Source: a virus
Lineage: Duplodnaviria > Caudoviricetes
DNA length: 56,029 nucleotides
Strand: one strand, 5' to 3'
IMG/VR virus record: IMGVR_UViG_3300010153_006010
Span: 1-56,029 of that record
Under the pieces are notes generated by a model, which saw only the letters and a program-made list of their open reading frames with translations, ran no database searches and was not told the origin of the DNA. Within the stretch, counting starts at the first letter, position 1. Every line of letters starts with the position of its first letter. A program made the translations under genes and the position numbers. Positions 7,715-51,112 of the stretch are shown here, one piece after another.

Positions 7715-7720
7715 GTTGTT

Positions 7721-23845: not shown

Positions 23846-23846
23846 T

Positions 23847-34213: not shown

Positions 34214-34214
34214 T

Positions 34215-35932: not shown

Positions 35933-35933
35933 T

Positions 35934-36266
35934 TTATTCTCCTTTGTTTTCCTCTAGAAAAAAGAACTCTCTAGAATTAATAGCTTTGTCACAGATAAAG
36001 AGGTCATAATATGGCTTACCTAAAGATATTCCGTGGTTTAAAACTCCCCATTTTTTTAATTGTTGTTTCGTTAATTCTTCCCAGTCCAGCCCAGTCTTAG
36101 AGCCCCTAGCTGTCCAATATATTATAGTATGACCACTCTCATATAAGGAGTTCATTTTAGAGATATTTTCTAAAATAGGTACAGACCTAGAATAATCTGG
36201 GGAAGTGGAAGGGCCAACACTAGCTTGAGTACATATTGTCTCATCTATATCAACATAAATAATCAT
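35934..36266 (-). CDS. Capless HAD-superfamily phosphatase (capsule-biosynthesis type)
   Basis: VDIDET (DxD), WTARG, GKPYYDLFICDKA. Confidence 0.8.
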   Translation of the reverse strand: MIIYVDIDETICTQASVGPSTSPDYSRSVPILENISKMNSLYESGHTIIYWTARGSKTGLDWEELTKQQLKKWGVLNHGISLGKPYYDLFICDKAINSREFFFLEENKGE

Positions 36267-36964
36267 TTGCCCGCTGTATTTACAAAGTGCTGAGGGAGGG
36301 GCTTAACAAACATTGTTCGTGTCATGCGTTTTGCAAAACAAGCCATAAGAGCATCATTAGGAATAGTAGATTGGTAAGATCCCGCTTCCATCTGAAACCC
36401 TAAACTTGTTGGGGAAGAAAATCTCAAATATGTATGCTCTGGAGAGTATTCCTCCCAAGCCCTAGAGAGCCTCGTCTTTGTGGCACAATATAATATTTCA
36501 AAACCATTAGAGTTATAAAAATCTCTGAATAAAGCTGGACTTAAAGAATAAAACCCTCTGCCATAAAACCCTGATATATTGGATGTGTGTAGTATCTTCC
36601 CCTTGTCCGATAAAAGATCTAGTATATTTTTCCAAACTGTAGAAATATCAAAACAACAATAAAGGGTGCCCGAATCTATTATCCAATCATAAGAGTTTTT
36701 CAACTCGTCCGGTATTTCCTCATTTAGATTTATTTTATGTGTAGGGTTTCCAACTACATCAAAAGTATGAACCGTGTCGAAGCCGAGCGATTCACCAAAC
36801 TCTATCAGTGAAGAATACCCACCAATGTTACAAACACGATCCTTTTGAATTACTAAACCAAGATTATTTCTAACGTTATCTCCCAATATAGCACAAGAAG
36901 TGCCACCAGGATGTTGGGACCTTAGTTCCCGGATAAGGCTTAAATCTTCTTCCTCTATAGCCAT
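36263..36964 (-). CDS. SAM-dependent methyltransferase-like protein
   Basis: YDWIIDSGTLYCCFDI..KNILDLL..KG resembles class I MTase post-motifs; GFYSLSPALF. Confidence 0.5.
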   Translation of the reverse strand: MAIEEEDLSLIRELRSQHPGGTSCAILGDNVRNNLGLVIQKDRVCNIGGYSSLIEFGESLGFDTVHTFDVVGNPTHKINLNEEIPDELKNSYDWIIDSGTLYCCFDISTVWKNILDLLSDKGKILHTSNISGFYGRGFYSLSPALFRDFYNSNGFEILYCATKTRLSRAWEEYSPEHTYLRFSSPTSLGFQMEAGSYQSTIPNDALMACFAKRMTRTMFVKPLPQHFVNTAGK

Positions 36965-37800
36965 TTTGATTCTCTCTTTCTAATATAAAAATTATTAAGC
37001 ATAATTTTTATAGCGTCAATATCCGGGGTTTTTACCTCGATGTCGTAAAAAATTTCTTCTTCTTGTTTTTCTTGGGAAATATCCTTATATTCTACTTGGT
37101 TAGGATATGAGTGGTACTCCTTATAAGCCTCACATAATTTATGAAGATGAATTTTATAACACTTCTCATTAAATATATACGTGGATTGGCTGCCCAAACA
37201 TGAACTAATTTTTTCAACGACCTCTCGGATGGGGACAAAATATCTAACCATGTCTCTATTGCTAACAGAAATTGGTTTTCCCTGGAGGCGCTGTTTATCC
37301 CAAATGTCCAAAACACTCCCAGTAGAAAAGAAAAAATTAACTCCTTGAAATACTGAGAAGTTGTGGTCTAATAATAGTTTTTCCGTAAGATATTTCGTGA
37401 CTCCGTATACACAAGAGGGATTAGTCGCTTTATCTGTGCTTATTCCTATTACGTTTTTAACATTATTTTCTAAAGCTGCTTCAATAATATTCTTGGTCCC
37501 AATCACATTAACTTCTATAGCTCTCGTTGGGTTTTGTTCACATATTTTAACGTGCTTCATAGCTGCTGTGTGAACAACATAATCGATATTATACTTTCTT
37601 AGTATATGGGAAATTTTATGTTTATTGGTAGAGATATCCAAATTATAGAGATTTAGTTTATTAGTATCGCTGTGAAAATTAATCTCTTGAGAGCGGGATT
37701 CTGAATTTGTTAATCCCACCACATGATGACCCGCCTCAATAAAGTGCGCTACTAATTCTCTCCCTAAAAATCCAGCAGCGCCAGTAATCAAAATATTCAT
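36955..37800 (-). CDS. NDP-sugar dehydratase/epimerase, polysaccharide biosynthesis protein (PseB/CapD-like)
   Basis: ITGAAGFLG, HTAAMKHV..CE.NP..A..VNV.GT, ISTDKA..P..VYGVTK. Confidence 0.85.
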   Translation of the reverse strand: MNILITGAAGFLGRELVAHFIEAGHHVVGLTNSESRSQEINFHSDTNKLNLYNLDISTNKHKISHILRKYNIDYVVHTAAMKHVKICEQNPTRAIEVNVIGTKNIIEAALENNVKNVIGISTDKATNPSCVYGVTKYLTEKLLLDHNFSVFQGVNFFFSTGSVLDIWDKQRLQGKPISVSNRDMVRYFVPIREVVEKISSCLGSQSTYIFNEKCYKIHLHKLCEAYKEYHSYPNQVEYKDISQEKQEEEIFYDIEVKTPDIDAIKIMLNNFYIRKRESKWL

Positions 37801-37812
37801 TAATTATTCCAA

Positions 37813-38568
37813 TTAAAAACAGTTTGCTTCGGCGGGGATGCCGAATTTATTGTTAATTTCATCAAAAATCTCAGACGCAACAGAACTTTCGGTATAAAAG
37901 CCTTCAATGCAACTGTCCCAAGCATAATAGCCCCTTTGGTGTTCCTCTAGATCTATGCTAGTATAACACTGGAGTAGGCTATCTTTTAATTCGGAATCTA
38001 CTTTATACTGATAATATTTGTGCGGGATTGTTAAGTTATTATATTCTATGCCACTGAGTTGCTGACAAAATACGTCATTGACCAAGTGAGTTTTATCGAA
38101 GCGGCGGGCAGCACGCTGACATGGTATCATAGCGAAATATGGTATTGTCATAAAAGAAAAATAAGAAAAAGGAACACTTTCTTTAGAACAATATTCTCTG
38201 ACTACATTATATAATTGTTTATGCTGGATATGTAAGTGTTCATCGCCATAGAAAGAATGAGTAATTATAAGGTCATACCCTATGGATCCTAAATTTTCTA
38301 AACCCTCCTTGATGATTTTTTCGGGGGAACTGATTAAAACGCCTCCAACTCTTACTAAATCATTCTTAAAATGATGCCAAGACTGGATATTTAATTTCCT
38401 CATGACCTCTCTGAAAGAAGATGACCTCGCAGGGTCCAGACCACCGGTCATACACAGAACACTAACATCCACCCCCTCCAGTTGACTTAAAAAATTTAAA
38501 GTTCCGCCGATCCACAATGACTCGTCGTCTGGGTGGGCGACTACAAATAATATTTTCTTATTACTCAT
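37813..38568 (-). CDS. PIG-L/LmbE family N-acetyl sugar deacetylase
   Basis: VVAHPDDE and THSFYGDEHLHIQH motifs. Confidence 0.85.
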   Translation of the reverse strand: MSNKKILFVVAHPDDESLWIGGTLNFLSQLEGVDVSVLCMTGGLDPARSSSFREVMRKLNIQSWHHFKNDLVRVGGVLISSPEKIIKEGLENLGSIGYDLIITHSFYGDEHLHIQHKQLYNVVREYCSKESVPFSYFSFMTIPYFAMIPCQRAARRFDKTHLVNDVFCQQLSGIEYNNLTIPHKYYQYKVDSELKDSLLQCYTSIDLEEHQRGYYAWDSCIEGFYTESSVASEIFDEINNKFGIPAEANCF

Positions 38569-39629
38569 TTATTAAAACCTCTGAGATGTTGAAAAAATAT
38601 AGTAAATTTCTCCATATCCTTTACGTGTCCATTATAATGACGGCTTTTAACCCATGGCAAATTAACATAATGAGCTGGTAGGCGACTTACAAGATCATCC
38701 ACATTCAATAATTCTCCATCAAATTGTTGACCACCGGCAGCGTACAACTGTGTGAAATATTTCTTCAGTAATTTTATCGAAGACTCTTCTCTCAAAAGAT
38801 CGGCTTGAGGTGTTTTGTGGGACTCATATTTTTTATAATTTTCAACCGCATATATGAGAGATTCATGAGCAGTTTCATATGAATCAAATAACACAGAATT
38901 TTCATTAGTTAAGAAATCTAGCGAGCTTCCTTTTTGGTCTTTCCATATCACCGTGGGAAGACCACATAACATCCCTTCAGGTATAACTCCTGGAAATCCT
39001 TCCATTTGGGAAAATAATGTATTAACTTTCGAAGATTGATATAGGAAGGCTAATTGCTTTTTACTCAAGCCCTTGAACTCTAAGTCTTTCCCTAAGCGCA
39101 GAAGAGTAAACATATCACGTTCTGTGTCAGTGAACATGTCATAATATACATCTGCTATATCAACAAAGTGATCTTGAGTTGTCTCTTCATCTCTTGACGC
39201 ACAAACCAGCAAAATATTGTATTGATGCCCTAGAGAATATATTTTTTTAACTTCTCTAAAGAAGGTTTGGAGTTGTTTTACGTTTCCATTTCTGGATACA
39301 TTAATAATGTCCCAATACTTTTGGGCTGTAGGATTTAGATGGAACTTAGAGGAGGTAAAATTACCACTCGCCATGGGGATATGAAATATATGCGGATTTC
39401 TATCACTAATATCTACTACTGAAGGCAATCCCATGTAAAAATCAAAAGCTGGTGGTAGATTAACTCCTTTAGAAAATCCTCCATAATGCACACCTACAAA
39501 ATAATATTCTGTCATCTCTAGAAAGAGATTTTGAGCGTCAGTATTTGTTAAAATCCATCCCGCTTCTTGATGCGTGAGGACAACAATACCTTTATTATGA
39601 GAATCAGGGTGTTTAAATATGTGAGCCAT
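38565..39629 (-). CDS. GT-B fold glycosyltransferase (GT4-like)
   Basis: SQMEGFPGVIPEGMLCGLP (Ex7E motif). Confidence 0.75.
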   Translation of the reverse strand: MAHIFKHPDSHNKGIVVLTHQEAGWILTNTDAQNLFLEMTEYYFVGVHYGGFSKGVNLPPAFDFYMGLPSVVDISDRNPHIFHIPMASGNFTSSKFHLNPTAQKYWDIINVSRNGNVKQLQTFFREVKKIYSLGHQYNILLVCASRDEETTQDHFVDIADVYYDMFTDTERDMFTLLRLGKDLEFKGLSKKQLAFLYQSSKVNTLFSQMEGFPGVIPEGMLCGLPTVIWKDQKGSSLDFLTNENSVLFDSYETAHESLIYAVENYKKYESHKTPQADLLREESSIKLLKKYFTQLYAAGGQQFDGELLNVDDLVSRLPAHYVNLPWVKSRHYNGHVKDMEKFTIFFQHLRGFNK

Positions 39630-39641
39630 GGTTTTTTTATC

Positions 39642-40364
39642 TTATTGCGGGCGGCAATGTAATAAGACAACCTTTCTTGGTTTATTTGGTTCCAAAACAA
39701 TGCCGCCATAATGAAGAATGTCAGTATGAACGATTAAAAGGTCGCCCACGCCACCATCATACGAAACAGCATCCTCTTGTTTATATTTTGGATTATCGTC
39801 ATAATCACTAGGTTGGTGCTTACAGCCATTGTTCCAACCAGTTAAATCATGGAGATCCATTTTTTCAGTTCTATACCGTGCACCTTCAGAAATACTCCCA
39901 GGAATAGCATGGAAAGAACCATTGGCGGTATCTGTTTCAGAGAGATAAAGGATAAATTTTAATGATTCGTATGGATCAAAATGAAGCAGCGCATTTCTGG
40001 GATAAGCCTCTTCATTAACCAGAGGGTTATATTCAGTTGACATAAAGATTTGCATACCATATTTGTGCTCGCCTAAACACCCATGCGCTATCTCTTTTAA
40101 CGTCTGATTTTCAAATAAGTTATGAATGTTAGGTATAGTGATATAGGCGGGGGGCTGTACCCTAAGATGCTTTCCTAAATCGTAAGAGCCCGGCTCTTCT
40201 AGTTCGATATAATTTGGCTGATTTAAATAAGCCTGAGTTCTGTTTGGGATATTCGAAAAGATTGTATCGAATTCCTTAAGGACTGGATCAGGTTCTTTTA
40301 AAAAATTGTTGACAACATATATGCCATCTTTATTTACTTGTTCTATAATTTTATTAGTATTCAT
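39642..40364 (-). CDS. 2OG-Fe(II) dioxygenase, PhyH family
   Basis: LHFD (HxD), LKFILYLSET..NGSF..IPGS, GDLLIVHTDILHYGG...R. Confidence 0.8.
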   Translation of the reverse strand: MNTNKIIEQVNKDGIYVVNNFLKEPDPVLKEFDTIFSNIPNRTQAYLNQPNYIELEEPGSYDLGKHLRVQPPAYITIPNIHNLFENQTLKEIAHGCLGEHKYGMQIFMSTEYNPLVNEEAYPRNALLHFDPYESLKFILYLSETDTANGSFHAIPGSISEGARYRTEKMDLHDLTGWNNGCKHQPSDYDDNPKYKQEDAVSYDGGVGDLLIVHTDILHYGGIVLEPNKPRKVVLLHCRPQ

Positions 40365-41182
40365 TTTCTAAGGGTCCCTTTTTTCGCTAACTCACTTTGG
40401 AGGAGCACTCTAGGCTCTTTATTGCCCAAGGAAAGCTCTATATCTCTAATGCCCTTGACAAGTTTAAGAAGCCCATGCGGCTCGACAGAAGCCAACTGAT
40501 CGCTGCCCCACATTGTTCGGTCTAAGGTCACATGTCTTTCAACCCAATTTGCCCCCATTGCGGTGGCGGCGAAAGTAGTCACCAAGCCGTATTCATGACC
40601 ACTATAGCCTATTTCTGCGTTTGGCCATTTATCTTTCAAATATAAGATATAATTAAGATTAAGTTCAGCAACTGGGGATGGGTAACAGGAATTAGTATGC
40701 ATGATCACATCCGGGTTACAGGTTGTAATACATTTTTCTATTTCCTCTTCCGTGCTCATTCCCGTGGAAATGATAAGCTTATCAAAATTTTTCCTTACGT
40801 GGCGACATAATTCTAAATCCGATATTAGAGCGGAAGGTATTTTAGCAATATTGGTATACTCCCGCATAAATCTGGACGAATCAACATCCCATACAGACGC
40901 AAAACATTCTATATTTCGGTCTTTACAATAAGCAAATATCTCATCATACTCTTTCTTTTCGAACTCTATCTTTTTTTTATAATCAAGATAAGTCATCTCT
41001 CCCCAAGGAGTTTCCCTTATTTTGTTTTTTTGGTGCTCCGGAACACATATATCAGGAGTTCTTTTTTGAAACTTTACATAATCACACCCTGCTAATACAG
41101 AGACATCTATAAGCTTTTTCGCTATATCCAGAGACCCATTATGATTGATGCCTATCTCAGAAATAATTGAACATTTATTCAT
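40361..41182 (-). CDS. neuB: N-acetylneuraminate/nonulosonate synthase (NeuB family) lacking the C-terminal AFP-like domain
   Basis: SEIGINHNG, VKFQKR, KIPSA, ISTGMS, GYSGHE, ERHVTLDR..WGSD. Confidence 0.92.
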   Translation of the reverse strand: MNKCSIISEIGINHNGSLDIAKKLIDVSVLAGCDYVKFQKRTPDICVPEHQKNKIRETPWGEMTYLDYKKKIEFEKKEYDEIFAYCKDRNIECFASVWDVDSSRFMREYTNIAKIPSALISDLELCRHVRKNFDKLIISTGMSTEEEIEKCITTCNPDVIMHTNSCYPSPVAELNLNYILYLKDKWPNAEIGYSGHEYGLVTTFAATAMGANWVERHVTLDRTMWGSDQLASVEPHGLLKLVKGIRDIELSLGNKEPRVLLQSELAKKGTLRK

Positions 41183-41194
41183 TTATAACCCTTG

Positions 41195-41827
41195 CTAAAA
41201 ATTTAGTTTTTTATAATCTTCTAGTGTGTCAACATCGACAACATCGCTTATGCGATAAAAGATCGTGTCCTCATTATACAAGTTATCATTGAGTCTGTCA
41301 AGGTGGTCGGCATTAAAAATACAAATATAGTGACTCAATCTAAAACAATTTGGATAATCTTGACGGCGGTAAAGATTATGGGCGACAACTTGTTTGCCCC
41401 GATTATCGCCCACAGACTCTAAACACAAATAAGGGTGATCAATTATTTCATGACGACATAATAAGCTATAAGCCTCACATTCAGCGTAATAATCGTAAAT
41501 ATTCTTTATATCAGTAGTTTTTCTTTCAGGATACGTCAAATATAAAAGAATAATATCCGCCGAACTTATGCCTTTGTCTTTTATTATTTCTCTCACAGCT
41601 TCCTTCATAGATGCTGTATCACTGCTATTGTATGAACTTCTAATGTGAACGTCTATACCGAATTTATGGGACATCTTGATAATTTCTTGATCATTAGTGC
41701 TCACAATAACATTGGCATATTCTTCTTTTGGGATTTGCTCTATAGTATATTTGAACAACTTCCTATTCTTATCAGGAAAACCCTTAGAACCAGAGCGAGC
41801 AGGAATTATATAAATACGTTCATTCAT
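41195..41827 (-). CDS. neuA: CMP-nonulosonate (acylneuraminate) cytidylyltransferase
   Basis: [32 protein letters not shown]. Confidence 0.88.
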
Positions 41828-42419
41828 ATAAAGTAATTCTTCCTTCAGTGTGTAATGATCTAATTTTTTGCTCTTCTTTATTCTTTGCGTGGTTTTGTTC
41901 GTAAGGTATTACACTCTCAAAATAATGAAATTTTGCTGGGTCCTGGAAAAAAGAAAACCCATAACAACTTACTTTGTCAAAGTTCTCTAGTGCATACTGT
42001 ATTCCCAAATAACCCATTGTTGGGTCGCCGCCCAATTGAGATGAGTGTTCTTTTAGCCACTCGTCCGAAATATGCTGGATTTTATTGCCACGATTGATCA
42101 AATCATTATAAAGCGATGATTTACTATTAAAATTCGGGAGTGATTTGATCCATAATTCCTCATTCCTCATTTGGTTTATAAATTCATTATCATACTCTGG
42201 GAAGTATTTCGTATGTTCCTTGAGGTGTAACTCATCTAGAGCACACAAAATCGGATGACAGTTCATGAACCGAAGTGTTCTCTTAGAGCCTACAAACTTT
42301 TCATAACCAGTAGTTTCGGCGATGTTAAATCGGACAACTACATCATGAGAATCAATTTCTTCCCCGTTTTCCTTCTCTAGTATAATTGGTGAATTACCTA
42401 CAACAGCACACGAAATCAT
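41820..42419 (-). CDS. GT29 family sialyltransferase-like protein, soluble
   Basis: Sialylmotif L (CAVVGNS.......[15 protein letters not shown]...[11 protein letters not shown]), S ([17 protein letters not shown]), motif III (HYFE), VS (HAKNKE). Confidence 0.85.
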
Positions 42420-42422
42420 TTT

Positions 42423-42800
42423 TTACCTCTCTAAAATCTTCTTAAATTCTTTATAGTCTCGAATATAGTTGTCTTCTGTATATTTGGAATTAGCAAAAAC
42501 CAACAGAGAAGTATTAGATTCTATATATTCTAATATGAGCCATTCCAACTCTTTTTGGTGATATACTTCACCTCGGTTCATGGTGAACTTGACGATACCA
42601 GATCTATCTTCCTTAGTGACATTTACAGAACCGTTTAGACAGATTAGATAATGTTCTTCGTTTTGGTGGGCATGATTACCACGGATGTCTCCAGGCTCAA
42701 CATTTTGAACGAAAAAGAACCTCTCTGGCTTAAATGGTAATCTATCTATTTCACAAGGAATTAAAAACCCATTAGAATTTTGTTTAACTTCTAGTTGCAT
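42423..42800 (-). CDS. dTDP-4-keto-6-deoxyhexose 3,4-ketoisomerase (FdtA/QdtA cupin)
   Basis: LPFKPERFF....RGNHAH...LICLNGS...LLVFAN..Y....YIRDY. Confidence 0.85.
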   Translation of the reverse strand: MQLEVKQNSNGFLIPCEIDRLPFKPERFFFVQNVEPGDIRGNHAHQNEEHYLICLNGSVNVTKEDRSGIVKFTMNRGEVYHQKELEWLILEYIESNTSLLVFANSKYTEDNYIRDYKEFKKILER

Positions 42801-43719
42801 TTTCTTTCACCAAATTAATAACTTTATTCACCTCTTGATTTGTCATCTTTTCGTGAAATGGGAGTGATATAGTAGTGCGCCCTTCTTCTGAAGAATAGGG
42901 GAGATCTAAATAATCAACAAAATTGGGGTTATAAATTGTATTCTCATGTAAAGCGCCATAATGGATGCCAGTTTGTATTCCGTCTTTTCCCATCAAAGTT
43001 ATAAGCTCACCCCTGTTAATAACGTTTATTCTATACAAATGGTTGCTAGTATTATTTAACCCAAAAGATTTATCATAAACTGCTCTGATTTCGGATAGTC
43101 TATTGTTTTTCTCATCAAGAATTTCTAAATTACGTGTGGCGATAAAAGCCTGTAAAGAATTCATATACATTTTATATCCTGGGAATTTGATCTTTCTATC
43201 CCAATTGTGTTCTGAGAAGGTCATACCATTAAGAGTTGATTCCTTAAATCTTTTTATTTTTTCCCAATCATTAGATACTATGATTCCGCCGTCGCAGGAC
43301 CCTACTGGTTTCGTCGGGTAAAAACTGAAGATCATTAGATCTTCATCGTTCGCCTCGGTGGAGAATTGATTTCTTTCAACTTTCTGTGCTGAATCTATTA
43401 CTTTATAATTGTCAAACTCGTGTAGGACATAAGAGCCCCCGACCCAGCCTACATTATCTACAAAATTTATCTTATTTCCTCCAGTAATAAGTCCATTACA
43501 AACGACAGGCGGGATAATAGAGGGAACATTCACCGTGAGCATCTTATTAAGAAATATTAAAAAGATTGCGTTTGTCGCACTATTGACAGAACACGCATAT
43601 TTTGCGCCAACATATTCACAAAACTTATTCTCAAAATTGTCTACCACCTTGTCGTGTAAAAGGTGAGAAAATTTAGATGTGTCTATGGTGTACGAAGGCA
43701 CATTAAATAGACTTATCAC
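42784..43719 (-). CDS. DegT/DnrJ/EryC1/StrS PLP-dependent sugar aminotransferase
   Basis: VNSATNA, DSAQ, SFYPTKP.GSCDGG, GIHY, ISLPFH. Likely GTG start at 43719 (GTGA overlap). Confidence 0.88.
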   Translation of the reverse strand: MISLFNVPSYTIDTSKFSHLLHDKVVDNFENKFCEYVGAKYACSVNSATNAIFLIFLNKMLTVNVPSIIPPVVCNGLITGGNKINFVDNVGWVGGSYVLHEFDNYKVIDSAQKVERNQFSTEANDEDLMIFSFYPTKPVGSCDGGIIVSNDWEKIKRFKESTLNGMTFSEHNWDRKIKFPGYKMYMNSLQAFIATRNLEILDEKNNRLSEIRAVYDKSFGLNNTSNHLYRINVINRGELITLMGKDGIQTGIHYGALHENTIYNPNFVDYLDLPYSSEEGRTTISLPFHEKMTNQEVNKVINLVKENATRS

Positions 43720-44507
43720 TGCTTTAATCCCATATAACAAATCCAAGTGTAGGAAGGGGCCTCTTCTAAGTATGTAGGATATTTATCGCCTGTATCTAAA
43801 TCTAACAAAGGTGGAGGGGAATTATATGTATCATCGTCCCAAGTGTCTCCCCACCTTGTATTGGGAATTTTATATATGGGCGGCATCTCTTGATAGACCT
43901 CTACTCTATCATCAAACGCTTGATACGCTGCGTATGAATATTTATGATGAGTTCTATCCCCGGCGTGGTCCATGATATAATCCCTACAAGCTAATATTTT
44001 TTTAGGAGAAAAAGTATCTCCTTGTGTTGTTGGATAATTATCTTCATATAAAATGTGTTGGATGCCGAGGCCATGTACATATTCCAGGCGCTGTAAAAAA
44101 TCCTGATGATCATCTAGGAACAAAAGTATGTCGTTTTTAGATATATTTTCTTCTGTTTCCATCTGAGAAAACAAATCGTCCCAATCATATGATGTCATAT
44201 CTTGGTCTAAATAAATCGCTTTATCACTTTTATATATAAGATGTTGATAAGTTATATCAATAGAGATTATTTTAGCCTCGGGCACTGCTTTTTCTATTAT
44301 CCAAGTTCCGAGACCCTTCCACACACCGCTCTCTATGACAACTTTAGGTTGTAATTGCTTCAAGGCATACCATGTATTAAACAAATGGGGTGATTTCATC
44401 CCTCCTTGATTATCTTTGATGGGTCTTTCCGCATAAATACTGTAAAACTCATCTAGACTATTTTTTACTTGTTCGAAATCATCATATTTTATCATATTGT
44501 TCTTCAT
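43716..44507 (-). CDS. Methyltransferase-fold hypothetical protein
   Basis: LQPKVVIESGVWKGLGTW (SAM motif I-like), IISID, FLDDH, YEDNY. Confidence 0.6.
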   Translation of the reverse strand: MKNNMIKYDDFEQVKNSLDEFYSIYAERPIKDNQGGMKSPHLFNTWYALKQLQPKVVIESGVWKGLGTWIIEKAVPEAKIISIDITYQHLIYKSDKAIYLDQDMTSYDWDDLFSQMETEENISKNDILLFLDDHQDFLQRLEYVHGLGIQHILYEDNYPTTQGDTFSPKKILACRDYIMDHAGDRTHHKYSYAAYQAFDDRVEVYQEMPPIYKIPNTRWGDTWDDDTYNSPPPLLDLDTGDKYPTYLEEAPSYTWICYMGLKQ

Positions 44508-45109
44508 TGTGCTTCATCCTTTCGAAACAGAAATGTGCGGTGGTTGCTATTATATGGGAACGATTGACACTCTTCCACAAGCCCAAACCCATTAAATCTA
44601 AATGTATTCATCAAATTTTCATAATTCAATATTGTTTTGATAGTCGGAAGGTTGCCATATGTTGTGTAATTGTCAAGATGAGTTTCCGTATTTGTTATTT
44701 CTTGGCGATGAATTAAAATATCACCTTCACTATGAAGTAATATTTTATTAAGTATAATATACCATTCCGGCACTTCACTGAGAAAACTGTTCATCAATAT
44801 TAAGTCATACTGTTTAGTAAATTCAAAATTGGTTTCATTGGCATCGATAGATATATATTTTCCCGAAGGGTTGGACACCTTAGACACTTTCTCTATGATG
44901 TGAGGTAAATCGGCTCCGGTATAGTCCCACTGAGGAAAAGCCGCAGAAGCTTCGGCAGTGCCACAGCCGATGTCCAACAAAGTTCTTCCGTCGGATAGTT
45001 CCACACATCGACTAAGAGAGGCAAAATGATCTGATTCTTGTAAAGGTCGAAAGCCCGCAGTTAACATTGATGTGGGAAGAGCGTCGGTGTTATACCAAGC
45101 TGTTTTCAT
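44504..45109 (-). CDS. Class I SAM-dependent methyltransferase
   Basis: LLDIGCG, YTGAD, YDLILMNSFL. Confidence 0.8.
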   Translation of the reverse strand: MKTAWYNTDALPTSMLTAGFRPLQESDHFASLSRCVELSDGRTLLDIGCGTAEASAAFPQWDYTGADLPHIIEKVSKVSNPSGKYISIDANETNFEFTKQYDLILMNSFLSEVPEWYIILNKILLHSEGDILIHRQEITNTETHLDNYTTYGNLPTIKTILNYENLMNTFRFNGFGLVEECQSFPYNSNHRTFLFRKDEAQ

Positions 45110-45995
45110 GATTATCTAACTCCATATCTATTCTCCTTTTCAGGGAATTCATATTTTTGGCTATAGCTTGGGGGTGTCTACCTTCGAACTCTGCCGTATA
45201 ACATTCACCTCTATATTCAGCCTTGAATTCGTGTACTCCTTCATATTCTTTTTCTAGGTGGTACCTTTCGAATGGTTCAAGTTTCATCCACGGTAAATAA
45301 ACCCTATTATAATAATCGTCTATACACTTAGACATGCTTACTTTGGCTTTATAATATTCAATCTTGTTTTTTACCTGTTTTGGAAAAACGTAAGAATAGT
45401 GATACATCTCAATGCCGGTTGTTTGATACAGTGTCTCGCTATCTATGTGTTTCTTTGTGATAGATGAAGAAGTGGGGTATTTTATAGTAGGAGGACGGTG
45501 AGTTAGCCAGGTACTTCCAGGAGTAACCCTAAACACTCTTAAAAAATTATCCCTGTTTAACTCAAAACCTGTTAGATAATTGTCAAAACCGCCGTAAAAA
45601 CTTTTACTTCGAACACCTACACTGGTTGGTTTCACCTCGTCGAGAAAATCTAACATTTTTTCTATGTCGGATTGTAGATATAATTCATCACTGTCTAAAT
45701 TCCACAGATAATCTATGTCATCCCTCAAATGAGATAGATAAGCGTTACACTGCTCATCTTTTTCTTTATATTGACCATGTACAATTTGAATTTTATTATC
45801 AGGGTCTGGAAAATTAGTTAATATTTCGTTAGTCCTATCAGTAGAAGTTGTTCTCCCACGATCTTGCCAATATTTTACGGGACCCTCGGCGATTAAAATT
45901 TGTGTAGCATAAGGGTAAACCTGTTCGAGACATTCTTGGAGGACATAATCCCCCTCAAAGACTATCATTCCGAATGCTATTTTTGGTTTTGTCAT
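45090..45995 (-). CDS. GT-A fold glycosyltransferase (GT2-like)
   Basis: MIVFEG, STDRT, YLWNLDSDE (DxD), HYSYV. Likely start MTKPK at 45995. Confidence 0.75.
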   Translation of the reverse strand: MTKPKIAFGMIVFEGDYVLQECLEQVYPYATQILIAEGPVKYWQDRGRTTSTDRTNEILTNFPDPDNKIQIVHGQYKEKDEQCNAYLSHLRDDIDYLWNLDSDELYLQSDIEKMLDFLDEVKPTSVGVRSKSFYGGFDNYLTGFELNRDNFLRVFRVTPGSTWLTHRPPTIKYPTSSSITKKHIDSETLYQTTGIEMYHYSYVFPKQVKNKIEYYKAKVSMSKCIDDYYNRVYLPWMKLEPFERYHLEKEYEGVHEFKAEYRGECYTAEFEGRHPQAIAKNMNSLKRRIDMELDNHENSLV

Positions 45996-46884
45996 GTGCT
46001 TCCCTGAGATCATTATAATATTGATCTGCTATAAGTTTAATAAATTGTTGCTGGTGCGCTGAATGAGTTGGTTCTTTGAGGAACCCATGGCGTGGAGCTA
46101 GTTCATATGAATTTATATCATACTTTGGTTTAAAATTTGAAAAATGGCAATACAATAATTCTTGCTCTTTTTTATTCCAGACTATTTTATTATTTGTATA
46201 TCCATGATAATTGAAATTCCACGGAGCTAAATGACCTATATCCTCATCTAGGACTTTAACGTTGGTGGATAATTGTTCAAATACTTCTAGATATTTTTGA
46301 TCGCCGCAGGTGCCATGAGTTTGAAAATATTCATTATCATGTCTTAAAAGACAATTTTTCCACCATGTTAAAACTTTATATCCCTCGAAATCATTTTTAA
46401 AATAGACTATACCAACATTATACTTTCCATTAACTGGGTTATAGGGACATCGATGTTCTACTATTCCCACACTACAATCTTCTACAGATTTTTCAAGGTC
46501 TTCTAGTCCTCGGAGAAAATAAATATCTGAATCTATGTATAAAATATCATCTACTTCTAAATTCTCTAAACACCACCAACTAAAATAGGAAGCAAGTGCC
46601 CAAAGAAATTGTAATTTTTGTGCTTGAAGAAAATCGTTTCCAGTGTTTAGCAAAGCCTCCCTTGATGGTGGGTTCGAGCGAGCAGTTCGTAAATTAACGT
46701 CTTCTCTTAATAGATCTGATATCTTATACTTCTTTATATTTGGTTCATTACATTTTCTATATATCTCGTCATCTACACACAATAAATGTAAAACGTAATT
46801 TTCCTGATGGCGCTTCAATGAGGTATTAAGAGCTAATACCTTTTCTGTGAAGTTGTTATCAGCTAAGGTACAGAAATTATTCAT
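45955..46884 (-). CDS. GT-A fold nucleotide-sugar transferase
   Basis: FCTL, YIDSDIYF (DxD), YNVG.VYF, GDQKYL, LAPWN, YCHFS. Confidence 0.75.
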   Translation of the reverse strand: MNNFCTLADNNFTEKVLALNTSLKRHQENYVLHLLCVDDEIYRKCNEPNIKKYKISDLLREDVNLRTARSNPPSREALLNTGNDFLQAQKLQFLWALASYFSWWCLENLEVDDILYIDSDIYFLRGLEDLEKSVEDCSVGIVEHRCPYNPVNGKYNVGIVYFKNDFEGYKVLTWWKNCLLRHDNEYFQTHGTCGDQKYLEVFEQLSTNVKVLDEDIGHLAPWNFNYHGYTNNKIVWNKKEQELLYCHFSNFKPKYDINSYELAPRHGFLKEPTHSAHQQQFIKLIADQYYNDLREAHDKTKNSIRNDSL

Positions 46885-46963
46885 AATCTATTGTTCTCAG
46901 CTTATGTTTTTAAAATAACACAAATAGCATCCCATAAATGAACCGACAGAGTGTTACTGGTCT

Positions 46964-47857
46964 TTATATAAATTTAATTATTCCTTGGTTTTTTTCTATC
47001 GTAAAGCCGGTGTTATCTAGCTTTTCTGAATCTATTGAATATCTTACATCTTGGCCGAGCCTGTTTTTTACATATTTAACATGCGGATTGATATCATCAA
47101 TATTATACCATGAACACACCTGACTGACAACTTCTATGTTGGTTAAATGATTATCAGCCGCAATATTGAATACTTCATTTCTTTCGCCGCTGAGAATAAG
47201 ATGATAAATAGCCTTAACATTATCTTCCACCCGAACCCAGTCTCGTATATAAGACCCGTCGCCATGAATAGGAATACAAGTCTTGTTTTCTAAACATTCT
47301 ATAATTTTGGGAATCAATTTTTCTGAATATTGTCTTGGTCCATAGTTATTTGAGCTTCGAGTTATTAGATACTCTAGTCCGTAAGTTTTATTATGAGAGA
47401 ATACAAACATTTCGCCCGCTGCCTTACTAGCAGAATAAGGATTGCTAGGTAAAAGCATGTCCCTCTCGTAAAATTTCTTATCCCTTGTATCTCCATAAAC
47501 TTCATCGGTGCTTATTTGTACAAAAAGAGGCGGGTTATAAACCTTAGCCCTCACTAGTTCCAAGAGATTGAATACCCCTCGGGCATTACTATCAAAGAAC
47601 ACCTTAGGAGACTCAATAGAATTATCTACATGAGATTCGGCAGCGAAGTTAACCACCACATCACATGGCGGCAGGTGGGTCATAGTAGATATATCTTCTT
47701 GGCGTAGTTCATATTTGGGGTCATCATCCCAGGGTAATTCTTTATTAGAAGCATAAGTCATCTTGTCGATATCAATTACTTCATGCCCCTTCAATAATAA
47801 TAATTCCACGAAGTGACTCCCAATGAAACCTCTTCCGCCCGTAACAACAAACTTCAT
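46964..47857 (-). CDS. rfbB: dTDP-glucose 4,6-dehydratase (RmlB)
   Basis: VTGGRGFIGS, DKMTYA, FAAESHVDNSI, STDEVYG, NPYSASK, NNYGPRQ..EKLIP, R.GQDVRY. Likely start at 47857; C-terminus shorter than usual. Confidence 0.92.
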   Translation of the reverse strand: MKFVVTGGRGFIGSHFVELLLLKGHEVIDIDKMTYASNKELPWDDDPKYELRQEDISTMTHLPPCDVVVNFAAESHVDNSIESPKVFFDSNARGVFNLLELVRAKVYNPPLFVQISTDEVYGDTRDKKFYERDMLLPSNPYSASKAAGEMFVFSHNKTYGLEYLITRSSNNYGPRQYSEKLIPKIIECLENKTCIPIHGDGSYIRDWVRVEDNVKAIYHLILSGERNEVFNIAADNHLTNIEVVSQVCSWYNIDDINPHVKYVKNRLGQDVRYSIDSEKLDNTGFTIEKNQGIIKFI

Positions 47858-47858
47858 A

Positions 47859-49856
47859 TTATGATCCTTGTAAAAAAAGTTTTTGGTATGTTTTGAATAT
47901 CGAAAACTCCTCCTTCTGTTTCTTTTTTTCTGTTTCCTTATTGGTGGAAATACCTGTTGGGTTAACATAGTACAAGCCAAGGATCTTGTTTAAGCATAAA
48001 AATTTCGAACCGGCGAAAGCAGCACGGAGCCACATCTCCCAATCACCGGCACTAAAATATTCGTTGTTAAAGATGCCATATTTATCATGGAGTGTTTTCC
48101 TCCACATTGGATTGTTGTGAGGCGAATTGGATTTTAGTAAGGTTTCCTTGCCTGTGTAGGCAAAAGGTCTTAATTGTCTCCACGATGGATCATTATCTTC
48201 AAACTTTTGATTTGGTGTATCAGTTACATAACAGTCGGCGTAAACGAGATCCACATCATCATTTACACACAAAGTTTTGGCGTGATATTCTAGAGAATCA
48301 GGACTCTTACGATCGTCAAGGTTAGCATTGGTTAAATACTCCCCAGTAGAGATCTCAACGCCCATATTCCATACCGCATATATGCCTGGGTCTTCTTCCA
48401 GTCGCCGGTACACGATATTATCTGGGTATTTTTTTATGTATTTATTAATAACATCTTCTTCATTACCAGGAGAATTAGCGTTGATCAATATGAGTTCACA
48501 CTTTTCCTTAAAAATGCTTTGACGAGTTATATCCTCCATAAACCCATCGATATAATCATCACCATCATAGACAGAAGTAATAATAGAAATTTTAGGAATG
48601 CGAGTTATTGGGATATCATCATAATTGGTTAAAGATAAATCTTTTTGTAAAAATTTACTGTATTTATCTCGGACCACTGATATGTCTTGGGTTTCTCTGA
48701 GATATTCGGTTAAACGACTGACATCAAAATCTAAAAAACGACTGCCTTTTCTAATACTTTTTAAATGTTTTTTAAATGATTCTTCTCGTGGATAAGCCCA
48801 CTCACACTTTTCAGTTATCAAGCCAGGCATTAAATGATGAGGCTTCACCTTTTCAATATCGTAACCAACTTTCATAAAATGACTTTTTATCTTTTTCTTC
48901 TTGGACTTAGAAAGCACAGGAATTCGTAAGAAATCTAAATGACCTGACCAATTGGTGGCTATTACCGGAATATTATTACAGGCAGCCTGAAAGAGTGGTA
49001 TTCCGAAACCTTCGCCGTGTGTTGTGGAAATATAACATTTAATAACGTCTGGGTTATAAAGAGATTCCATCTCTTGACTGGATAAACTCCCATGTACCAG
49101 ATAAACTCTACATTTTCTTTCCTTGCAAATTGTATCCAAGAGACCATTTAGTCGATCCCTGGTATGATGAAAATCCACAGTACTATTATTATGGGCATAA
49201 GTTTTTATAACCAAACCGACATCTTCATCATCCTTGAATTCCTCGATAAACCATTTTAACATATTGTCAAAGTTTTTACGGGGAGCCATTTGTAAGACTG
49301 TAAGAAAATTAAATTTTGTAGTTAATCCCATGGGGGTATAAATGTCTAGTTTTTCCTCGGCTTTATAACCAAAAGGAATAATACTAATAGGAGTTTTTAT
49401 TCTCTCACCACTATCAGATTTCGTGTTCTTGAGATTATTTTGAGCATGTTGAGAAACAACCAAAATATGATTCATCAAATTACACGGAGAAACCCACTCA
49501 GAAGGGGCAAAAGTAGTTTCTAAAGCAGCAGTAACTCCGATATCATTCTCGGACATCTGTTGAAATTCGTTGGGGGGTCTTACTTGATATGTCGTGTCAA
49601 ATAGTCCCGCAATATTTATTTCCCCATTAGGATTCGCTCTTTGTTGAAACAACGTAGTAGTTTTATGAATATATTCTTCGTACTTTGCGGCATACTTATG
49701 ACTGCGAGTAGCCGAAGCCCATTGTGTATCTTGGATATAAAGATCTATTTGGTTCCCCAGACTGATGAAAGCATCAGCGATCGTCCTAGCATGTTCGCTG
49801 TAGCCCGAAATATTACACACTGGTCCGATAATAAGAACTTTTGGAATAGTTGTCAT
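47859..49856 (-). CDS. Bifunctional glycosyltransferase: N-terminal GT4 plus C-terminal GT2
   Basis: SGYSEH, PRKN, GEGFGIPLFQAA..NIPVIATNWSGHLDF; then KISIITSVY, GIYAVWN.G, NANLDD, AGDWEMWLR. Confidence 0.85.
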   Translation of the reverse strand: MTTIPKVLIIGPVCNISGYSEHARTIADAFISLGNQIDLYIQDTQWASATRSHKYAAKYEEYIHKTTTLFQQRANPNGEINIAGLFDTTYQVRPPNEFQQMSENDIGVTAALETTFAPSEWVSPCNLMNHILVVSQHAQNNLKNTKSDSGERIKTPISIIPFGYKAEEKLDIYTPMGLTTKFNFLTVLQMAPRKNFDNMLKWFIEEFKDDEDVGLVIKTYAHNNSTVDFHHTRDRLNGLLDTICKERKCRVYLVHGSLSSQEMESLYNPDVIKCYISTTHGEGFGIPLFQAACNNIPVIATNWSGHLDFLRIPVLSKSKKKKIKSHFMKVGYDIEKVKPHHLMPGLITEKCEWAYPREESFKKHLKSIRKGSRFLDFDVSRLTEYLRETQDISVVRDKYSKFLQKDLSLTNYDDIPITRIPKISIITSVYDGDDYIDGFMEDITRQSIFKEKCELILINANSPGNEEDVINKYIKKYPDNIVYRRLEEDPGIYAVWNMGVEISTGEYLTNANLDDRKSPDSLEYHAKTLCVNDDVDLVYADCYVTDTPNQKFEDNDPSWRQLRPFAYTGKETLLKSNSPHNNPMWRKTLHDKYGIFNNEYFSAGDWEMWLRAAFAGSKFLCLNKILGLYYVNPTGISTNKETEKKKQKEEFSIFKTYQKLFLQGS

Positions 49857-51112
49857 AGTTTTTCTACCCTAATATATTGGTAATTTTTTCTCGTCGTCCA
49901 AGACCCCTGGTCGGCGTGCAAATTAAGCATGAAGTTGACCCACTGAGAATTAAATTTCTCAAAGTTATAATTTTCCTGAACATGTTTTTGTCCTGCGACG
50001 CCGAGAGCCTCACGTTCTTCTGGGGATGATTTGTACATTTTTACTAGCGCATCGAGGAAATCTTTCTTGGCAAGTCTGTCTTCATAAATATAGGGAACCT
50101 GCTGGGATCCTATAATAGCCTTAGAAGCAGGCTCTAAACCAATACCAAACCACTTTTTGCCATCCGTTACCTGTTCTTGCAAACCACCTGTCATATTGAC
50201 AATAATAGGGGTACCACAAGACAAGGATTCAAGAGTAGCTAAACCAAAACCCTCAGCATCTGATATGTTAATTGTACACCCGGCCAGATTATACAATAGA
50301 CTTAATTGTTCAGCCGGCAACTTCTGAGTAGATAACACCATCTCCCCGTCTTTGAACCCTAAATTATTAGCTAAGTAATGAAGAGGTTGACCGTGAGGGT
50401 CGTTAGGATCTGTATGCATGAATAAGCACACCTTATCTCGCTCTATCCCTTCCAGGTCCAAAAATTCTCTAAACCAATGAATTAAACTACCAGTTTGTTT
50501 GCGTCGGGCATTTCTATTATTCCAAAAAAAGATAAATCGACCATCCAAAGCAGGGTTGTTTTTCCTTACCTCCGATAACTCTTTTTCCGATTTTTTACAA
50601 AAGATTGAAGAATCTACCGCATGAGGAATATACTCCTCTTTAACTGATGGAGCTACTGTTCTAACAATATCACTGGTCACTTTTGAGATGCTAGCAATAG
50701 CATCATTGGATTCATAAAATCTCTTATTAAAGTTAGGATATGGATAATTATCCCAGACATGGTAATAAACCATAGGAATATTCTCCCGTATGGTATCATC
50801 CATAGACCATAACCACTCATAAAACCTAGGATCAGTCATAAAATAGAGAATATCTGGTTTTCTATCTCTGATAAAAGAGTTTATTATCTGAGCGTTGCCA
50901 TAACCATCAATTGGGAAGATCTCCCAATCATCGCCGTATTGTTCTACCTTTTTTGGAGTGTAGTCTTGATGTTTGATCGCCCCCCCTAAGGAAATTACAT
51001 TAAATTTACCACTAGCCAGTAATGCTTCAATCATATATTTTGTTTGAGTAGCTACCCCAGAAGGTAATAAAGGGTGATCACTAATCGTGAGAACTGTTAT
51101 TTTTTTATCCAA
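49853..51112 (-). CDS. GT4 family glycosyltransferase
   Basis: SDHP..PSGV, IPHAVD, NRNARRK, AEGFGLATLESLSCGTP; TTG start. Confidence 0.88.
   Translation of the reverse strand: MDKKITVLTISDHPLLPSGVATQTKYMIEALLASGKFNVISLGGAIKHQDYTPKKVEQYGDDWEIFPIDGYGNAQIINSFIRDRKPDILYFMTDPRFYEWLWSMDDTIRENIPMVYYHVWDNYPYPNFNKRFYESNDAIASISKVTSDIVRTVAPSVKEEYIPHAVDSSIFCKKSEKELSEVRKNNPALDGRFIFFWNNRNARRKQTGSLIHWFREFLDLEGIERDKVCLFMHTDPNDPHGQPLHYLANNLGFKDGEMVLSTQKLPAEQLSLLYNLAGCTINISDAEGFGLATLESLSCGTPIIVNMTGGLQEQVTDGKKWFGIGLEPASKAIIGSQQVPYIYEDRLAKKDFLDALVKMYKSSPEEREALGVAGQKHVQENYNFEKFNSQWVNFMLNLHADQGSWTTRKNYQYIRVEKL

Follow-up and report, generated by a model that had tools for sequence, protein, structure and literature searches.

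What does a bacteriophage build with a long run of glycan-assembly genes that comes without export machinery, and onto what does it build it? The question is raised by a Caudoviricetes record in IMG/VR (IMGVR_UViG_3300010153_006010), whose entire sequence of 56,029 nucleotides is the window analyzed here, and within it by an island at positions 35934-51112, on the minus strand, that encodes glycosyltransferases (GTs), nucleotide-sugar enzymes and tailoring enzymes. A sequence-only reading of this DNA had proposed a system that glycosylates the virion. Below we weigh that proposal against the gene content of the island and of its relatives; we favor, at a probability of roughly 40%, a phage-encoded acceptor that would be glycosylated in the cytoplasm without a lipid carrier and would most likely be an exposed virion protein.

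A fixed head and an exchangeable tail

First, there is the matter of whether the island belongs to the phage at all. It comprises 18 co-oriented, tightly packed open reading frames (ORFs), one more than the 17 genes counted in the sequence-only reading, which had correctly described them as often overlapping: 10 of the 17 junctions overlap and the widest gap, read off the ORF coordinates, is 79 bp. Also as described, the island sits between phage genes, with matches to a PD-(D/E)XK nuclease and PhoH on one side and to gp6-like and gp25-like baseplate wedge proteins and an M23-type lysin on the other, the lysis and baseplate/fiber genes lying directly downstream in the same orientation. An assembly chimera, in which a bacterial polysaccharide locus is mis-joined to phage DNA, could be suspected from base composition, as the G+C fraction of the island (0.345-0.369) is below that of the structural module (0.40-0.46), but the adjacent phage genes are likewise at 0.37. 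Moreover, an independent IMG/VR contig, L001, carries the same genes in the same order between the same phage flanks at 67-93% amino-acid identity, hundreds of viral contigs, as well as cultured phages, also carry the head genes of the island, and a pattern search of 185,579 species genomes for bacterial relatives of the GT29 enzyme found 54 loci, the closest only 36% identical. The chimera, which would have undone the proposal, is thus effectively refuted, and the island is a genuine phage-borne glycan-assembly island. A megablast search of the island against 50,697 phage records gave no match. As the window is the whole record, the remainder of the genome could be examined in relatives only; the 60-kb sister contig L001 has a completeness rating of 33% and four relatives of 190-196 kb one of 100%, and by comparison the full genome of this phage is probably ~180-190 kb long.

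Second, the locus has a recognizable head that is shared across a broad group of phages. When named phages are compared by the baseplate protein, Flavobacterium phage immuto, Microcystis phage Mel-JY01 and the 484-kb uncultured LR756508.1 come out nearest, each at ~30% identity, and the first island gene, encoding the glycosyltransferase GT4-A, is a signature of these three plus Rhodothermus phage RM378, being present in isolates from three host groups (Flavobacterium, Microcystis and Rhodothermus). The clade that carries the island, related to these four phages, consists of aquatic myoviruses and is widespread. At least 597 IMG/VR stretches, out of 600 candidates, encode a GT4-A relative. Among the best 80 GT4-A-selected loci, the head genes were counted as PhoH 72, peptidase 72, nuclease 78, GT4-A 80 and GT4-B (the GT4 half of the fused gene that follows) 78. 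Since that set had been chosen by GT4-A itself, the count was repeated on 80 loci selected by PhoH, 66 of which had at least 4.5 kb downstream and were evaluable: nuclease, GT4-A and GT4-B occur together in 64 of the 66, the two exceptions being remote relatives, with PhoH at 42% identity and on contigs of 340-359 kb. By tblastn, immuto and Mel-JY01 show the identical order of nuclease, GT4-A and GT4-B, with other glycan genes occupying ~11 kb and ~6.5 kb after it, respectively. RM378 has GT4-A, then one unannotated 425-aa ORF, to which the window's GT4-B gave no match at E 1e-4, and then ribonucleotide reductase; LR756508.1 has the nuclease, GT4-A, ~20 kb of further sequence and then the same small HAD-like gene that ends the present island (44% identical). 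The head of the locus, nuclease followed by GT4-A and GT4-B, is thus fixed and clade-core.

Identity steps down on entering the island. In the 15 closest PhoH-selected relatives, it falls from 80-88% in PhoH and 73-89% in the nuclease to 61-79% in GT4-A and 33-73% in GT4-B, and the RmlB gene that comes next is kept in only two of these 15. The stepwise decay, noted for L148-L162, L174 and L227, hints that the head of the island recombines or evolves faster.

Third, everything beyond the head varies. Comparison of island content among relatives, which the sequence-only reading had called for, returned a tail differing from locus to locus: the other island genes occur in 0-26 of the 80 GT4-A-selected loci (RmlB-like 26, HAD-like 16, NeuB 10, GT29 2), with the PIG-L gene, the PhyH gene and the gene at 36263-36964 each in none. 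The 759 ORFs downstream of GT4-A in these loci fall into 300 clusters, 186 of them singletons. A Pfam tally of 114 representatives (113 clusters and one singleton), given for the best 25 of 79 families, consists mainly of sugar epimerases/dehydratases, GT2, GT1, DegT, cytidylyltransferases, FkbM methyltransferases, NeuB, UDP-sugar dehydrogenases, radical-SAM proteins and formyltransferases. The tail is thus a variable set of soluble GTs, nucleotide-sugar enzymes and tailoring enzymes exchanged cassette-wise between relatives. In some relatives the HAD-like gene is where the island ends downstream; in the 16 loci that carry it, it lies 3.0-8.9 kb beyond GT4-A, so that the 15-kb island of the window is among the larger ones.

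Individual loci illustrate the exchange. At L001:10661-12804, in the place of window positions 40361-41827, the nonulosonate module has been swapped for one with a 487-aa NeuB, a fusion with a cupin/lyxose-isomerase-like part that is 28% identical to the window's NeuB; the L001 cytidylyltransferase is 36% identical, and the adjacent GT29 is 72% identical. L001 also has an extra gene, at 4853-5527, for a 224-aa methyltransferase-like protein. In LR756508.1 (stretch L002, positions 295000-344999 of that genome; island at ~10433-32193), there are five GT29-like ORFs, two GT25, a GT10 fucosyltransferase, two Sulfotransfer_2 proteins, GDP-sugar enzymes and a GIY-YIG endonuclease-like gene, accompanied by a NeuB at 53% identity and a cytidylyltransferase. 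With its sialyl, fucosyl and sulfo transfer, the toolkit looks strikingly like that of eukaryotes.

The enzymes and their probable products

Features of the island and of its conserved upstream flank (positions in the window; aa, amino acids; SAM, S-adenosylmethionine; TM, template-modeling score).
Feature	Positions	Strand	Basis
PhoH-like ATPase, conserved upstream flank	52638-53942	-	phrog_2765 E 5.5e-110; 72/80 GT4-A-selected loci
Peptidase_M90 zinc-metallopeptidase-like, conserved flank between PhoH and nuclease	51982-52641	-	PF06167 29.7 bits, cut-off 26.2; 72/80 loci, 63/66 evaluable loci
PD-(D/E)XK nuclease, directly upstream of island	51127-51966	-	PF12705 E 2.3e-16; 78/80, 64/66 loci; same position in immuto, Mel-JY01
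GT4-A, clade-core retaining GT-B glycosyltransferase	49853-51112	-	Pfam Glycos_transf_1; EX7E invariant in 35 sequences
GT4-B (residues ~1-405, clade-core) fused to GT2 domain (~420-620)	47859-49856	-	Pfam Glycos_transf_1 + Glycos_transf_2
RmlB-like dTDP-glucose 4,6-dehydratase	46964-47980	-	TIGR01181 296 bits, below equivalog cut-off 365
GT8-like GT-A glycosyltransferase	45955-46884	-	no Pfam match; Atlas, Foldseek, conserved residues
GT2 glycosyltransferase	45090-46013	-	PF00535 E 2e-9
Class I SAM methyltransferase	44504-45109	-	Methyltransf_11 21.6 bits, cut-off 21.2; Methyltransf_23, _12 below cut-offs
CmcI/'cephalosporin hydroxylase'-like SAM methyltransferase	43716-44507	-	no Pfam match; Atlas TM 0.84-0.86; PF04989, PF01596 on related rows
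DegT/DnrJ/EryC1-family sugar aminotransferase	42784-43746	-	PF01041 E 1.5e-32; best NCBIfam PseC 102 bits, cut-off 424
FdtA/WxcM-like 3,4-ketoisomerase (cupin)	42423-42800	-	PF05523 E 6.9e-25
GT29 sialyltransferase-like bare catalytic domain, 199 aa, no membrane stem	41820-42419	-	PF00777 111 bits, cut-off 23
CMP-nonulosonate/ulosonate cytidylyltransferase-like	41195-41827	-	PF02348 E 5e-13; PseF 56.8 bits, cut-off 206
NeuB-family nonulosonate synthase, 273 aa, NeuB domain alone in Pfam	40361-41182	-	PF03102 215 bits; NeuB_NnaB 205, cut-off 400; PseI 155, cut-off 340
PhyH-like Fe(II)/2-oxoglutarate dioxygenase	39642-40364	-	PF05721 27.9 bits, cut-off 22; present in L001
GT4-C, GT4-like glycosyltransferase	38565-39629	-	PF00534 33.7 bits + PF13692
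PIG-L/LmbE-family de-N-acetylase	37813-38568	-	PF02585 37.7 bits, cut-off 28.2
PseB/FnlA-like UDP-HexNAc 4,6-dehydratase-type short-chain dehydrogenase/reductase, 281 aa	36955-37800	-	Polysacc_synt_2 E 2e-46; PseB 126 bits, cut-off 408
Possible methyltransferase	36263-36964	-	Methyltransf_12 E 0.0027, below cut-off; 73% conserved in L001
Small HAD-type phosphatase-like protein, 110 aa	35934-36266	-	DIDET motif; phrog_1238 E 3.8e-25; PDB 9iqw 'capsule biosynthesis protein' E 5e-10

Pfam, NCBIfam and fold searches bear out the six GT genes with seven domains that had been read from the sequence (three GT4-like, two GT2, one GT8-like and one GT29), the three GT-A domains being the two GT2 and the GT8-like one, the latter seen at fold level only. 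GT4-A is the candidate initiating enzyme. The best structural match of its AlphaFold2 model (pLDDT, the model's confidence score, 88.3) in Foldseek is 3oy2, a GT of chlorovirus NY2A (E 8.6e-20), which fits the glycosylation of a virion without proving it; further fold neighbors are MshA, sucrose-phosphate synthase, BshA, PimB' and LmbT. In GT4-B the EX7E motif is kept in most relatives, and the fusion to a GT2 domain occurs, among the 15 closest PhoH-selected loci, only in L150, which is the same contig as L001. The GT8-like assignment draws on a protein Atlas feature score of 0.98, with TM of 0.79-0.92 to viral and Bacteroidota 'glycosyl transferase' clusters in which 11-27% of members carry PF01501; on Foldseek matches to glycogenin, LARGE1, GlyE and LgtC (E 1e-7 to 4e-6, TM 0.3-0.47) for a mediocre AlphaFold2 model built from five sequences (pLDDT 63.6); and on D118xD120 and H247, invariant in five sequences. 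Searching the PDB with phmmer for this protein, for the CmcI-like methyltransferase and for the PhyH-like dioxygenase yielded nothing useful.

The GT29 enzyme has a homologue in only one of the 50,697 phage records. Its alignment to pig ST3Gal-I (2wnb, E 2.5e-12) spans CAVVGNS...IDSHD..RFN, PT.G...C.GF and HYFE, which are kept in seven relatives and which we take to be the sialylmotifs L, S and VS. With PF00777 above cut-off and these stretches conserved, the protein qualifies by sequence as a member of the CAZy family GT29. NeuB has homologues in only two of the phage records.

The two nucleotide-sugar routes that had been proposed are both present, each only in part. From family membership, RmlB, FdtA and the DegT aminotransferase, with or without methylation, would convert host dTDP-glucose into a 3-amino-3,6-dideoxyhexose, and NeuB would make a nonulosonic acid, for the cytidylyltransferase to activate and GT29 to transfer. 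The true start of the RmlB-like gene is probably at 47857, because the L001 orthologue has 297 aa. No hydrolyzing epimerase, nucleotidase or N-acetyltransferase was found in the window, and since both routes are incomplete there, supply of the missing intermediates by the host is assumed. The NeuB/cytidylyltransferase set would therefore be of nonulosonate type, short of a complete N-acetylneuraminate, pseudaminate or legionaminate pathway, and the proposed nonulosonate-capped product may be predicted from family membership only. As for tailoring, the CmcI-like protein is a probable sugar O-methyltransferase, and the PhyH-like dioxygenase may act as a tailoring enzyme as well. Taken together, the soluble enzymes suffice to build a methylated chain, branched or linear, with about seven linkages.

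Around the island, the sequence offers little about expression. Scans for sigma-70 promoters and for terminators gave the same counts as shuffled sequence, and the T4 late-promoter motif TATAAATA occurs at 6 sites against 6.95 expected; with all of these at chance, nothing is learned about expression timing. A supposed 165-bp regulatory gap at 35769-35933 was rejected, as an ORF of ~53 aa, below the threshold of the ORF list and read from the sequence at 35771-35932 on the minus strand, lies inside it. Just upstream of the M23-type lysin gene (32915-34312), positions 35209-35508 encode a holin- or spanin-like candidate of 99 aa, 81% identical in L001, whose N-terminal part has a single hydrophobic segment (Kyte-Doolittle mean 2.2).

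The acceptor of the glycan

Fourth, and centrally, onto what is the glycan assembled? The sequence-only reading had found no transmembrane segment, no exporter and no initiating transferase in the island, and had deduced a cytoplasmic acceptor. The absences hold up. A hydropathy scan of the island proteins finds no transmembrane-like segment, the highest 19-residue Kyte-Doolittle mean being 1.74, in the aminotransferase, and all others 1.42 or less; a Pfam scan finds no Wzx, initiating phosphoglycosyl transferase, Wzy, ABC exporter or Gtr-type family there. Outside the island, Wzx (PF01943), Bac_transf (PF02397), Wzy_C (PF04932), Glycos_transf_4 (PF00953) and ABC2_membrane (PF01061) were each found in none of five genomes, namely the four 100%-complete relatives and immuto, in profile searches whose controls were positive in 10-14 of 14 genomes. 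Wzx, Bac_transf and Glycos_transf_4 were likewise above cut-off in none of LR756508.1, Mel-JY01 and RM378, where the sole match, in RM378, is of 14 bits with two stops; these three families are thus absent from all eight full-length relatives, and Wzy_C and ABC2_membrane from the five searched. Only one polytopic protein was found among the 759 island-side ORFs of the 80 relatives. Encoded at L010:18233-19858, it has 541 aa, about seven hydrophobic segments, a soluble C-terminal part, no Pfam match and a cluster to itself, and a GT-C-like or polymerase-like role is possible. By its gene content, then, the island lacks the defining features of Wzx/Wzy-dependent and ABC-dependent O-antigen or capsule loci and of Gtr seroconversion loci, and the window and its relatives alike seem to encode soluble enzymes with no lipid-carrier initiation or export step.

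The deduction drawn from these absences is where the sequence-only reading was incomplete. Extension of the lipopolysaccharide (LPS) core, or of lipooligosaccharide (LOS), employs soluble or peripheral GT4, GT8, GT25 and GT2 enzymes acting on lipid A-core, relies on host MsbA/Lpt for export and works without Wzx, Wzy or an initiating transferase; a phage can also draw on the lipid carriers and flippases of its host. Because LPS-core assembly proceeds without exporters of its own, the step from no exporter to a cytoplasmic acceptor does not close.

What favors a phage-encoded protein as the most likely acceptor is the conjunction of three observations: GT4-A is kept across phages of three host groups, and the GT4-A/GT4-B pair in immuto, Mel-JY01 and 64 of the 66 evaluable PhoH-selected relatives; no carrier step is found in eight genomes; and the virion DNA of immuto is free of sugar. 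If so, GT4-A and GT4-B would lay the first sugars on an acceptor conserved in the clade, after which the GT2, GT8-like and GT4-C enzymes would extend the chain to roughly a heptasaccharide bearing methyl groups, to be capped by cassette-encoded sugars, here the 3-amino-6-deoxyhexose and the GT29-transferred nonulosonate. Assembly would take place in the cytoplasm, straight onto the phage-encoded acceptor and with no lipid carrier, the best candidates being exposed virion proteins from the co-oriented tail, baseplate and fiber genes adjacent downstream. The variable tail of the locus would then diversify the sugar coat of the particle, paralleling chloroviruses, Megavirinae and mycobacteriophages. 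Extended to the whole clade, the idea is that these phages run their own carrier-free cytoplasmic protein glycosylation, in which the two core GT4s prime a conserved virion protein and swappable cassettes, among them eukaryote-type GT29 sialyltransferases, nonulosonate synthesis and, in LR756508.1, GT10, GT25 and sulfotransferases, write a strain-specific coat; this broader version is a shade more speculative. It would, as part of the same tentative reading, make the system a phage counterpart of giant-virus glycosylation, an 'O-antigen' of the virion itself.

Some features of the structural proteins may be noted alongside. A [ST]GS tripeptide, often following an aromatic or aliphatic residue, is enriched in five of them (1057-2244, 2257-3315, 12054-18587, 18642-22364 and 22361-23854), with examples of 11 observed against 2.8 expected and 7 against 0.9, and none of 2000 shuffles reaching the observed counts. 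It is absent from other large structural proteins, at 4439-11113 and 23847-25643. Of the 7 positions in a 497-aa structural protein, several are conserved in homologues of 43-58% identity. The tripeptide could be a structural motif or an acceptor site. Positions 4439-31970 further hold five very large structural ORFs (1091, 1130, 2177, 1240 and 1970 aa) with no Pfam match beyond a sub-threshold Laminin_G_3 lectin-like domain in 18642-22364.

The alternative that the LPS-core analogy brings in is host envelope remodeling, in which the enzymes would act at the inner membrane face on lipid A-core or undecaprenyl-linked intermediates that host MsbA/Lpt or Wzx/Wzy then export, and the altered surface would block superinfection, keep progeny from binding to debris again or alter how grazers recognize the cells. 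It has much to recommend it. Several of the families concerned are classic for LPS/LOS, namely GT2, GT4 (one such protein, gp90 of immuto, carries an 'RfaG' note), GT8 (LgtC being in the Foldseek list) and, in LR756508.1, GT25 and GT10; the PDB match of the HAD-like protein is to a 'capsule biosynthesis protein'; and LOS-type assembly requires none of the absent exporters. The three host groups are, we presume, all LPS-bearing diderms. Similar islands in the cyanomyoviruses S-SCSM2R, S-SCSM1 and P-SSM2 have been read in this way, to judge from the available part of the report (PMC12801897). Even so, the hosts across which GT4-A is retained differ greatly in envelope chemistry, and 64 of 66 PhoH-selected relatives have the GT4-A/GT4-B pair, whereas host-surface auxiliary genes are usually sporadic. 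Moreover, no Kdo (3-deoxy-D-manno-oct-2-ulosonic acid) or heptosyl transferase, lipid-binding protein or membrane protein was seen in the window, which has no GT9 or GT30 match in Pfam; Gtr membrane proteins of the seroconversion type are absent, and the window bears no sign of lysogeny. A set of soluble GT4, GT8, GT25 and GT2 enzymes working without exporters describes LPS-core assembly just as it does virion glycosylation, and so does not separate the two. Families known from heptose pathways, PfkB and cytidylyltransferase-like, make up two clusters each among the relatives. On balance we consider an envelope acceptor somewhat unlikely, while keeping it as a serious contender.

Phage DNA, which the sequence-only reading had named as the other cytoplasmic acceptor, has lost ground. 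Here the GTs would put mono- to oligosaccharides on modified bases, thereby evading restriction and CRISPR. Known phage GT clusters, in the accessible part of their description, place mono- to trisaccharides on 5-hydroxymethylcytosine (5hmC), resemble LPS/teichoic-acid enzymes and can adjoin structural genes (bioRxiv 10.1101/2023.12.21.572611); in the present clade the locus head adjoins a nuclease, and in immuto, Mel-JY01 and RM378 it stands beside replication genes, and the window has a 2-oxoglutarate dioxygenase together with methyltransferases. Those methyltransferases, however, are not of C5-cytosine DNA methyltransferase families, and the dioxygenase matches PhyH rather than Tet_JBP and is absent in all 80 relatives. 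A nonulosonate-capped chain built by about seven GT domains would also be larger than any DNA glycan in the accessible part of that preprint. For immuto, liquid chromatography with ultraviolet and mass-spectrometric detection of virion DNA gave dA, dC, dT and 7-(formylamino)methyl-7-deazaguanine (formyl-preQ1) in place of dG, and no sugar-bearing nucleoside is reported in the part of the source available (bioRxiv 10.1101/2023.04.13.536721). All four complete close relatives lack the thymidylate-synthase family PF00303, to which pyrimidine hydroxymethylases belong; its sole match is in immuto. Judged on the sequences, then, the island seems to have neither a pyrimidine hydroxymethylase nor the pairing of a C5-methyltransferase with a TET-like dioxygenase that marks DNA-glycosylation clusters. 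A genome search with Tet_JBP was uninformative, its control having matched nowhere, and a TGT model tried as a probe for deazaguanine modification was rejected as insensitive after it missed the known DpdA3 of immuto. We regard DNA as a very improbable acceptor.

There is also the broader thought that the product is some other cytoplasmic or secreted one, be it a glycosylated host protein or small molecule (for takeover or anti-defense) or an oligosaccharide or glycolipid freed at lysis. The small-molecule GTs among the nearest GT4 folds (MshA, BshA, sucrose-phosphate synthase and LmbT) would suit it, as would a weak Pfam 'GT4-conflict' match in GT4-A and its LR756508.1 homologue, except that this match covers only 43 residues around the EX7E motif. 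Cassette-level diversity and a nonulosonate cap are the pattern of exposed, recognized glycans and not of an intracellular effector. We judge such a product improbable.

Several points nonetheless weigh against a virion protein as the acceptor. The window holds about one third of the genome, the transmembrane test was a simple hydropathy scan, and the relatives searched for exporters are 27-62% identical in GT4-A, i.e., other phages. Missing exporters do not prove a cytoplasmic acceptor, and soluble GT4, GT8, GT25 and GT2 enzymes characterize LPS-core/LOS assembly no less. The island sugar enzymes all score below the NCBIfam equivalog cut-offs, and both nucleotide-sugar routes are incomplete, with no RmlA, no NeuC/PseG/PseH-type step and no N-acyltransferase in the window; the sugars are therefore named at family level only. 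After 3oy2, the fold neighbors of GT4-A are generic small-molecule or lipid GT4s that are silent on the acceptor, so no acceptor call was made from them. In immuto, Mel-JY01 and RM378 the locus lies among replication/nucleotide-metabolism genes and not structural genes, and in LR756508.1 it is ~200 kb from the baseplate gene. Finally, the virion glycan of this clade is predicted from genes alone, a literature search having found no publication on the clade's virion chemistry.

Much would follow from the answer. If the acceptor is the virion, sugar-coated phages would be common in lakes and oceans, given the at least 597 IMG/VR stretches that carry the anchor gene; such a coat would matter for adsorption, aggregation, decay, grazing and recognition, and virus-autonomous glycosylation, hitherto a matter of giant viruses and a few actinophages, would reach a major group of aquatic phages. 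If it is instead the host envelope, the locus would be a clade-core, not accessory, system that rewrites the host surface with rare sugars while encoding no exporter. In both cases the locus amounts to a natural library of soluble GTs exchanged as cassettes, including rare, short GT29 enzymes of the bacterial world. As three members of the clade (immuto, Mel-JY01 and RM378) are in culture, whether phages sugar-coat themselves is directly testable.

Comparison with known systems

Finally, it is instructive to set the island beside systems whose acceptors are better understood. Clustered, virus-encoded GTs, with or without nucleotide-sugar enzymes, are the hallmark of virus-autonomous virion glycosylation systems, and by its sequence the island shares it. 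In chloroviruses, capsid glycosylation is cytoplasmic and carrier-free and uses multi-domain GTs with methyltransferases; the GT genes are scattered in those genomes, whereas here they form one island. The NY2A enzyme 3oy2, although the best solved-structure match of GT4-A, shares only 17% sequence identity with it and has a function described as 'putative'. Bacterial parallels exist too: LOS outer-core GT sets and the O-glycosylation of serine-rich-repeat adhesins (GtfA/GtfB with GT8/GT2 extenders) work at or in the cytoplasm with soluble GT4, GT8 and GT2 enzymes only. LgtC and GlyE are among the fold matches of the GT8-like protein, a likeness at family level only. Two adjacent GT4-like genes head the locus, presumably as for GtfA/GtfB; GtfB is, as we take it, inactive, whereas GT4-B keeps its EX7E motif in most relatives.

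Among phages, the mycobacteriophage system reportedly has few GTs, no nucleotide-sugar or nonulosonate pathway, and actinobacterial hosts. As far as it is summarized in the available parts of later papers, phage GTs there glycosylate capsid and tail-tube subunits (Freeman et al., 2023, cited in PMC12619734 and PMC12801897). Large cyanomyoviruses (S-SCSM2R, S-SCSM1, P-SSM2) carry 'cell wall synthesis and modification' islands with many GTs (13 in S-SCSM2R), sugar epimerases and KdsA/KdsB, interpreted in print as modifying the host surface or DNA; in the portion of the report available, these are alike in being glycan islands of large myoviruses with an unproven target, and differ in their phage lineage, in having GT10, GT11, GT25 and other families and a PgaA export protein, and in that no conserved anchor is described (PMC12801897). 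The 5hmC DNA-glycosylation clusters of Pyle et al. similarly encode phage GTs related to LPS/teichoic-acid enzymes, sometimes near structural genes, but, according to the accessible part of that work, they need a cytosine methyltransferase and a TET-like dioxygenase, for which the window has no Pfam match. Another Bacteroidota-linked jumbo lineage has four core GT orthogroups, with DNA, serotype and virion listed as unresolved targets in the part of the paper available (PMC12619734). RM378 belongs to the Far-T4 group, whose papers are silent on the matter: 'glycosyl', 'sugar' and 'polysaccharide' have no occurrence in PMC4360716, nor 'glycosyltransferase' in PMC7198788. Our literature search, with most subscription journals outside its scope, found no description of a variable island anchored by a nuclease and GT4, or of NeuB/GT29 modules in lytic aquatic phages.

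The closest functional analogy may lie with giant viruses. The fibril clusters of Megavirinae comprise 6-33 genes for rare, bacterial-type amino-sugar pathways and GTs, are clade-specific and decorate the particle surface, as described in the available part of the report (PMC10117803). They share with the present island the virus-encoded clustering of nucleotide-sugar enzymes and GTs and the clade-specific content; they differ in their amoebal hosts and in that their glycans have been chemically shown on the fibrils, whereas here the host is bacterial and the system is known from its genes; the present locus, moreover, has its fixed two-GT4 head and its NeuB/GT29 module. By analogy, therefore, the island would work most like the fibril-glycosylation clusters of Megavirinae, with a further resemblance to the capsid glycosylation of chloroviruses.

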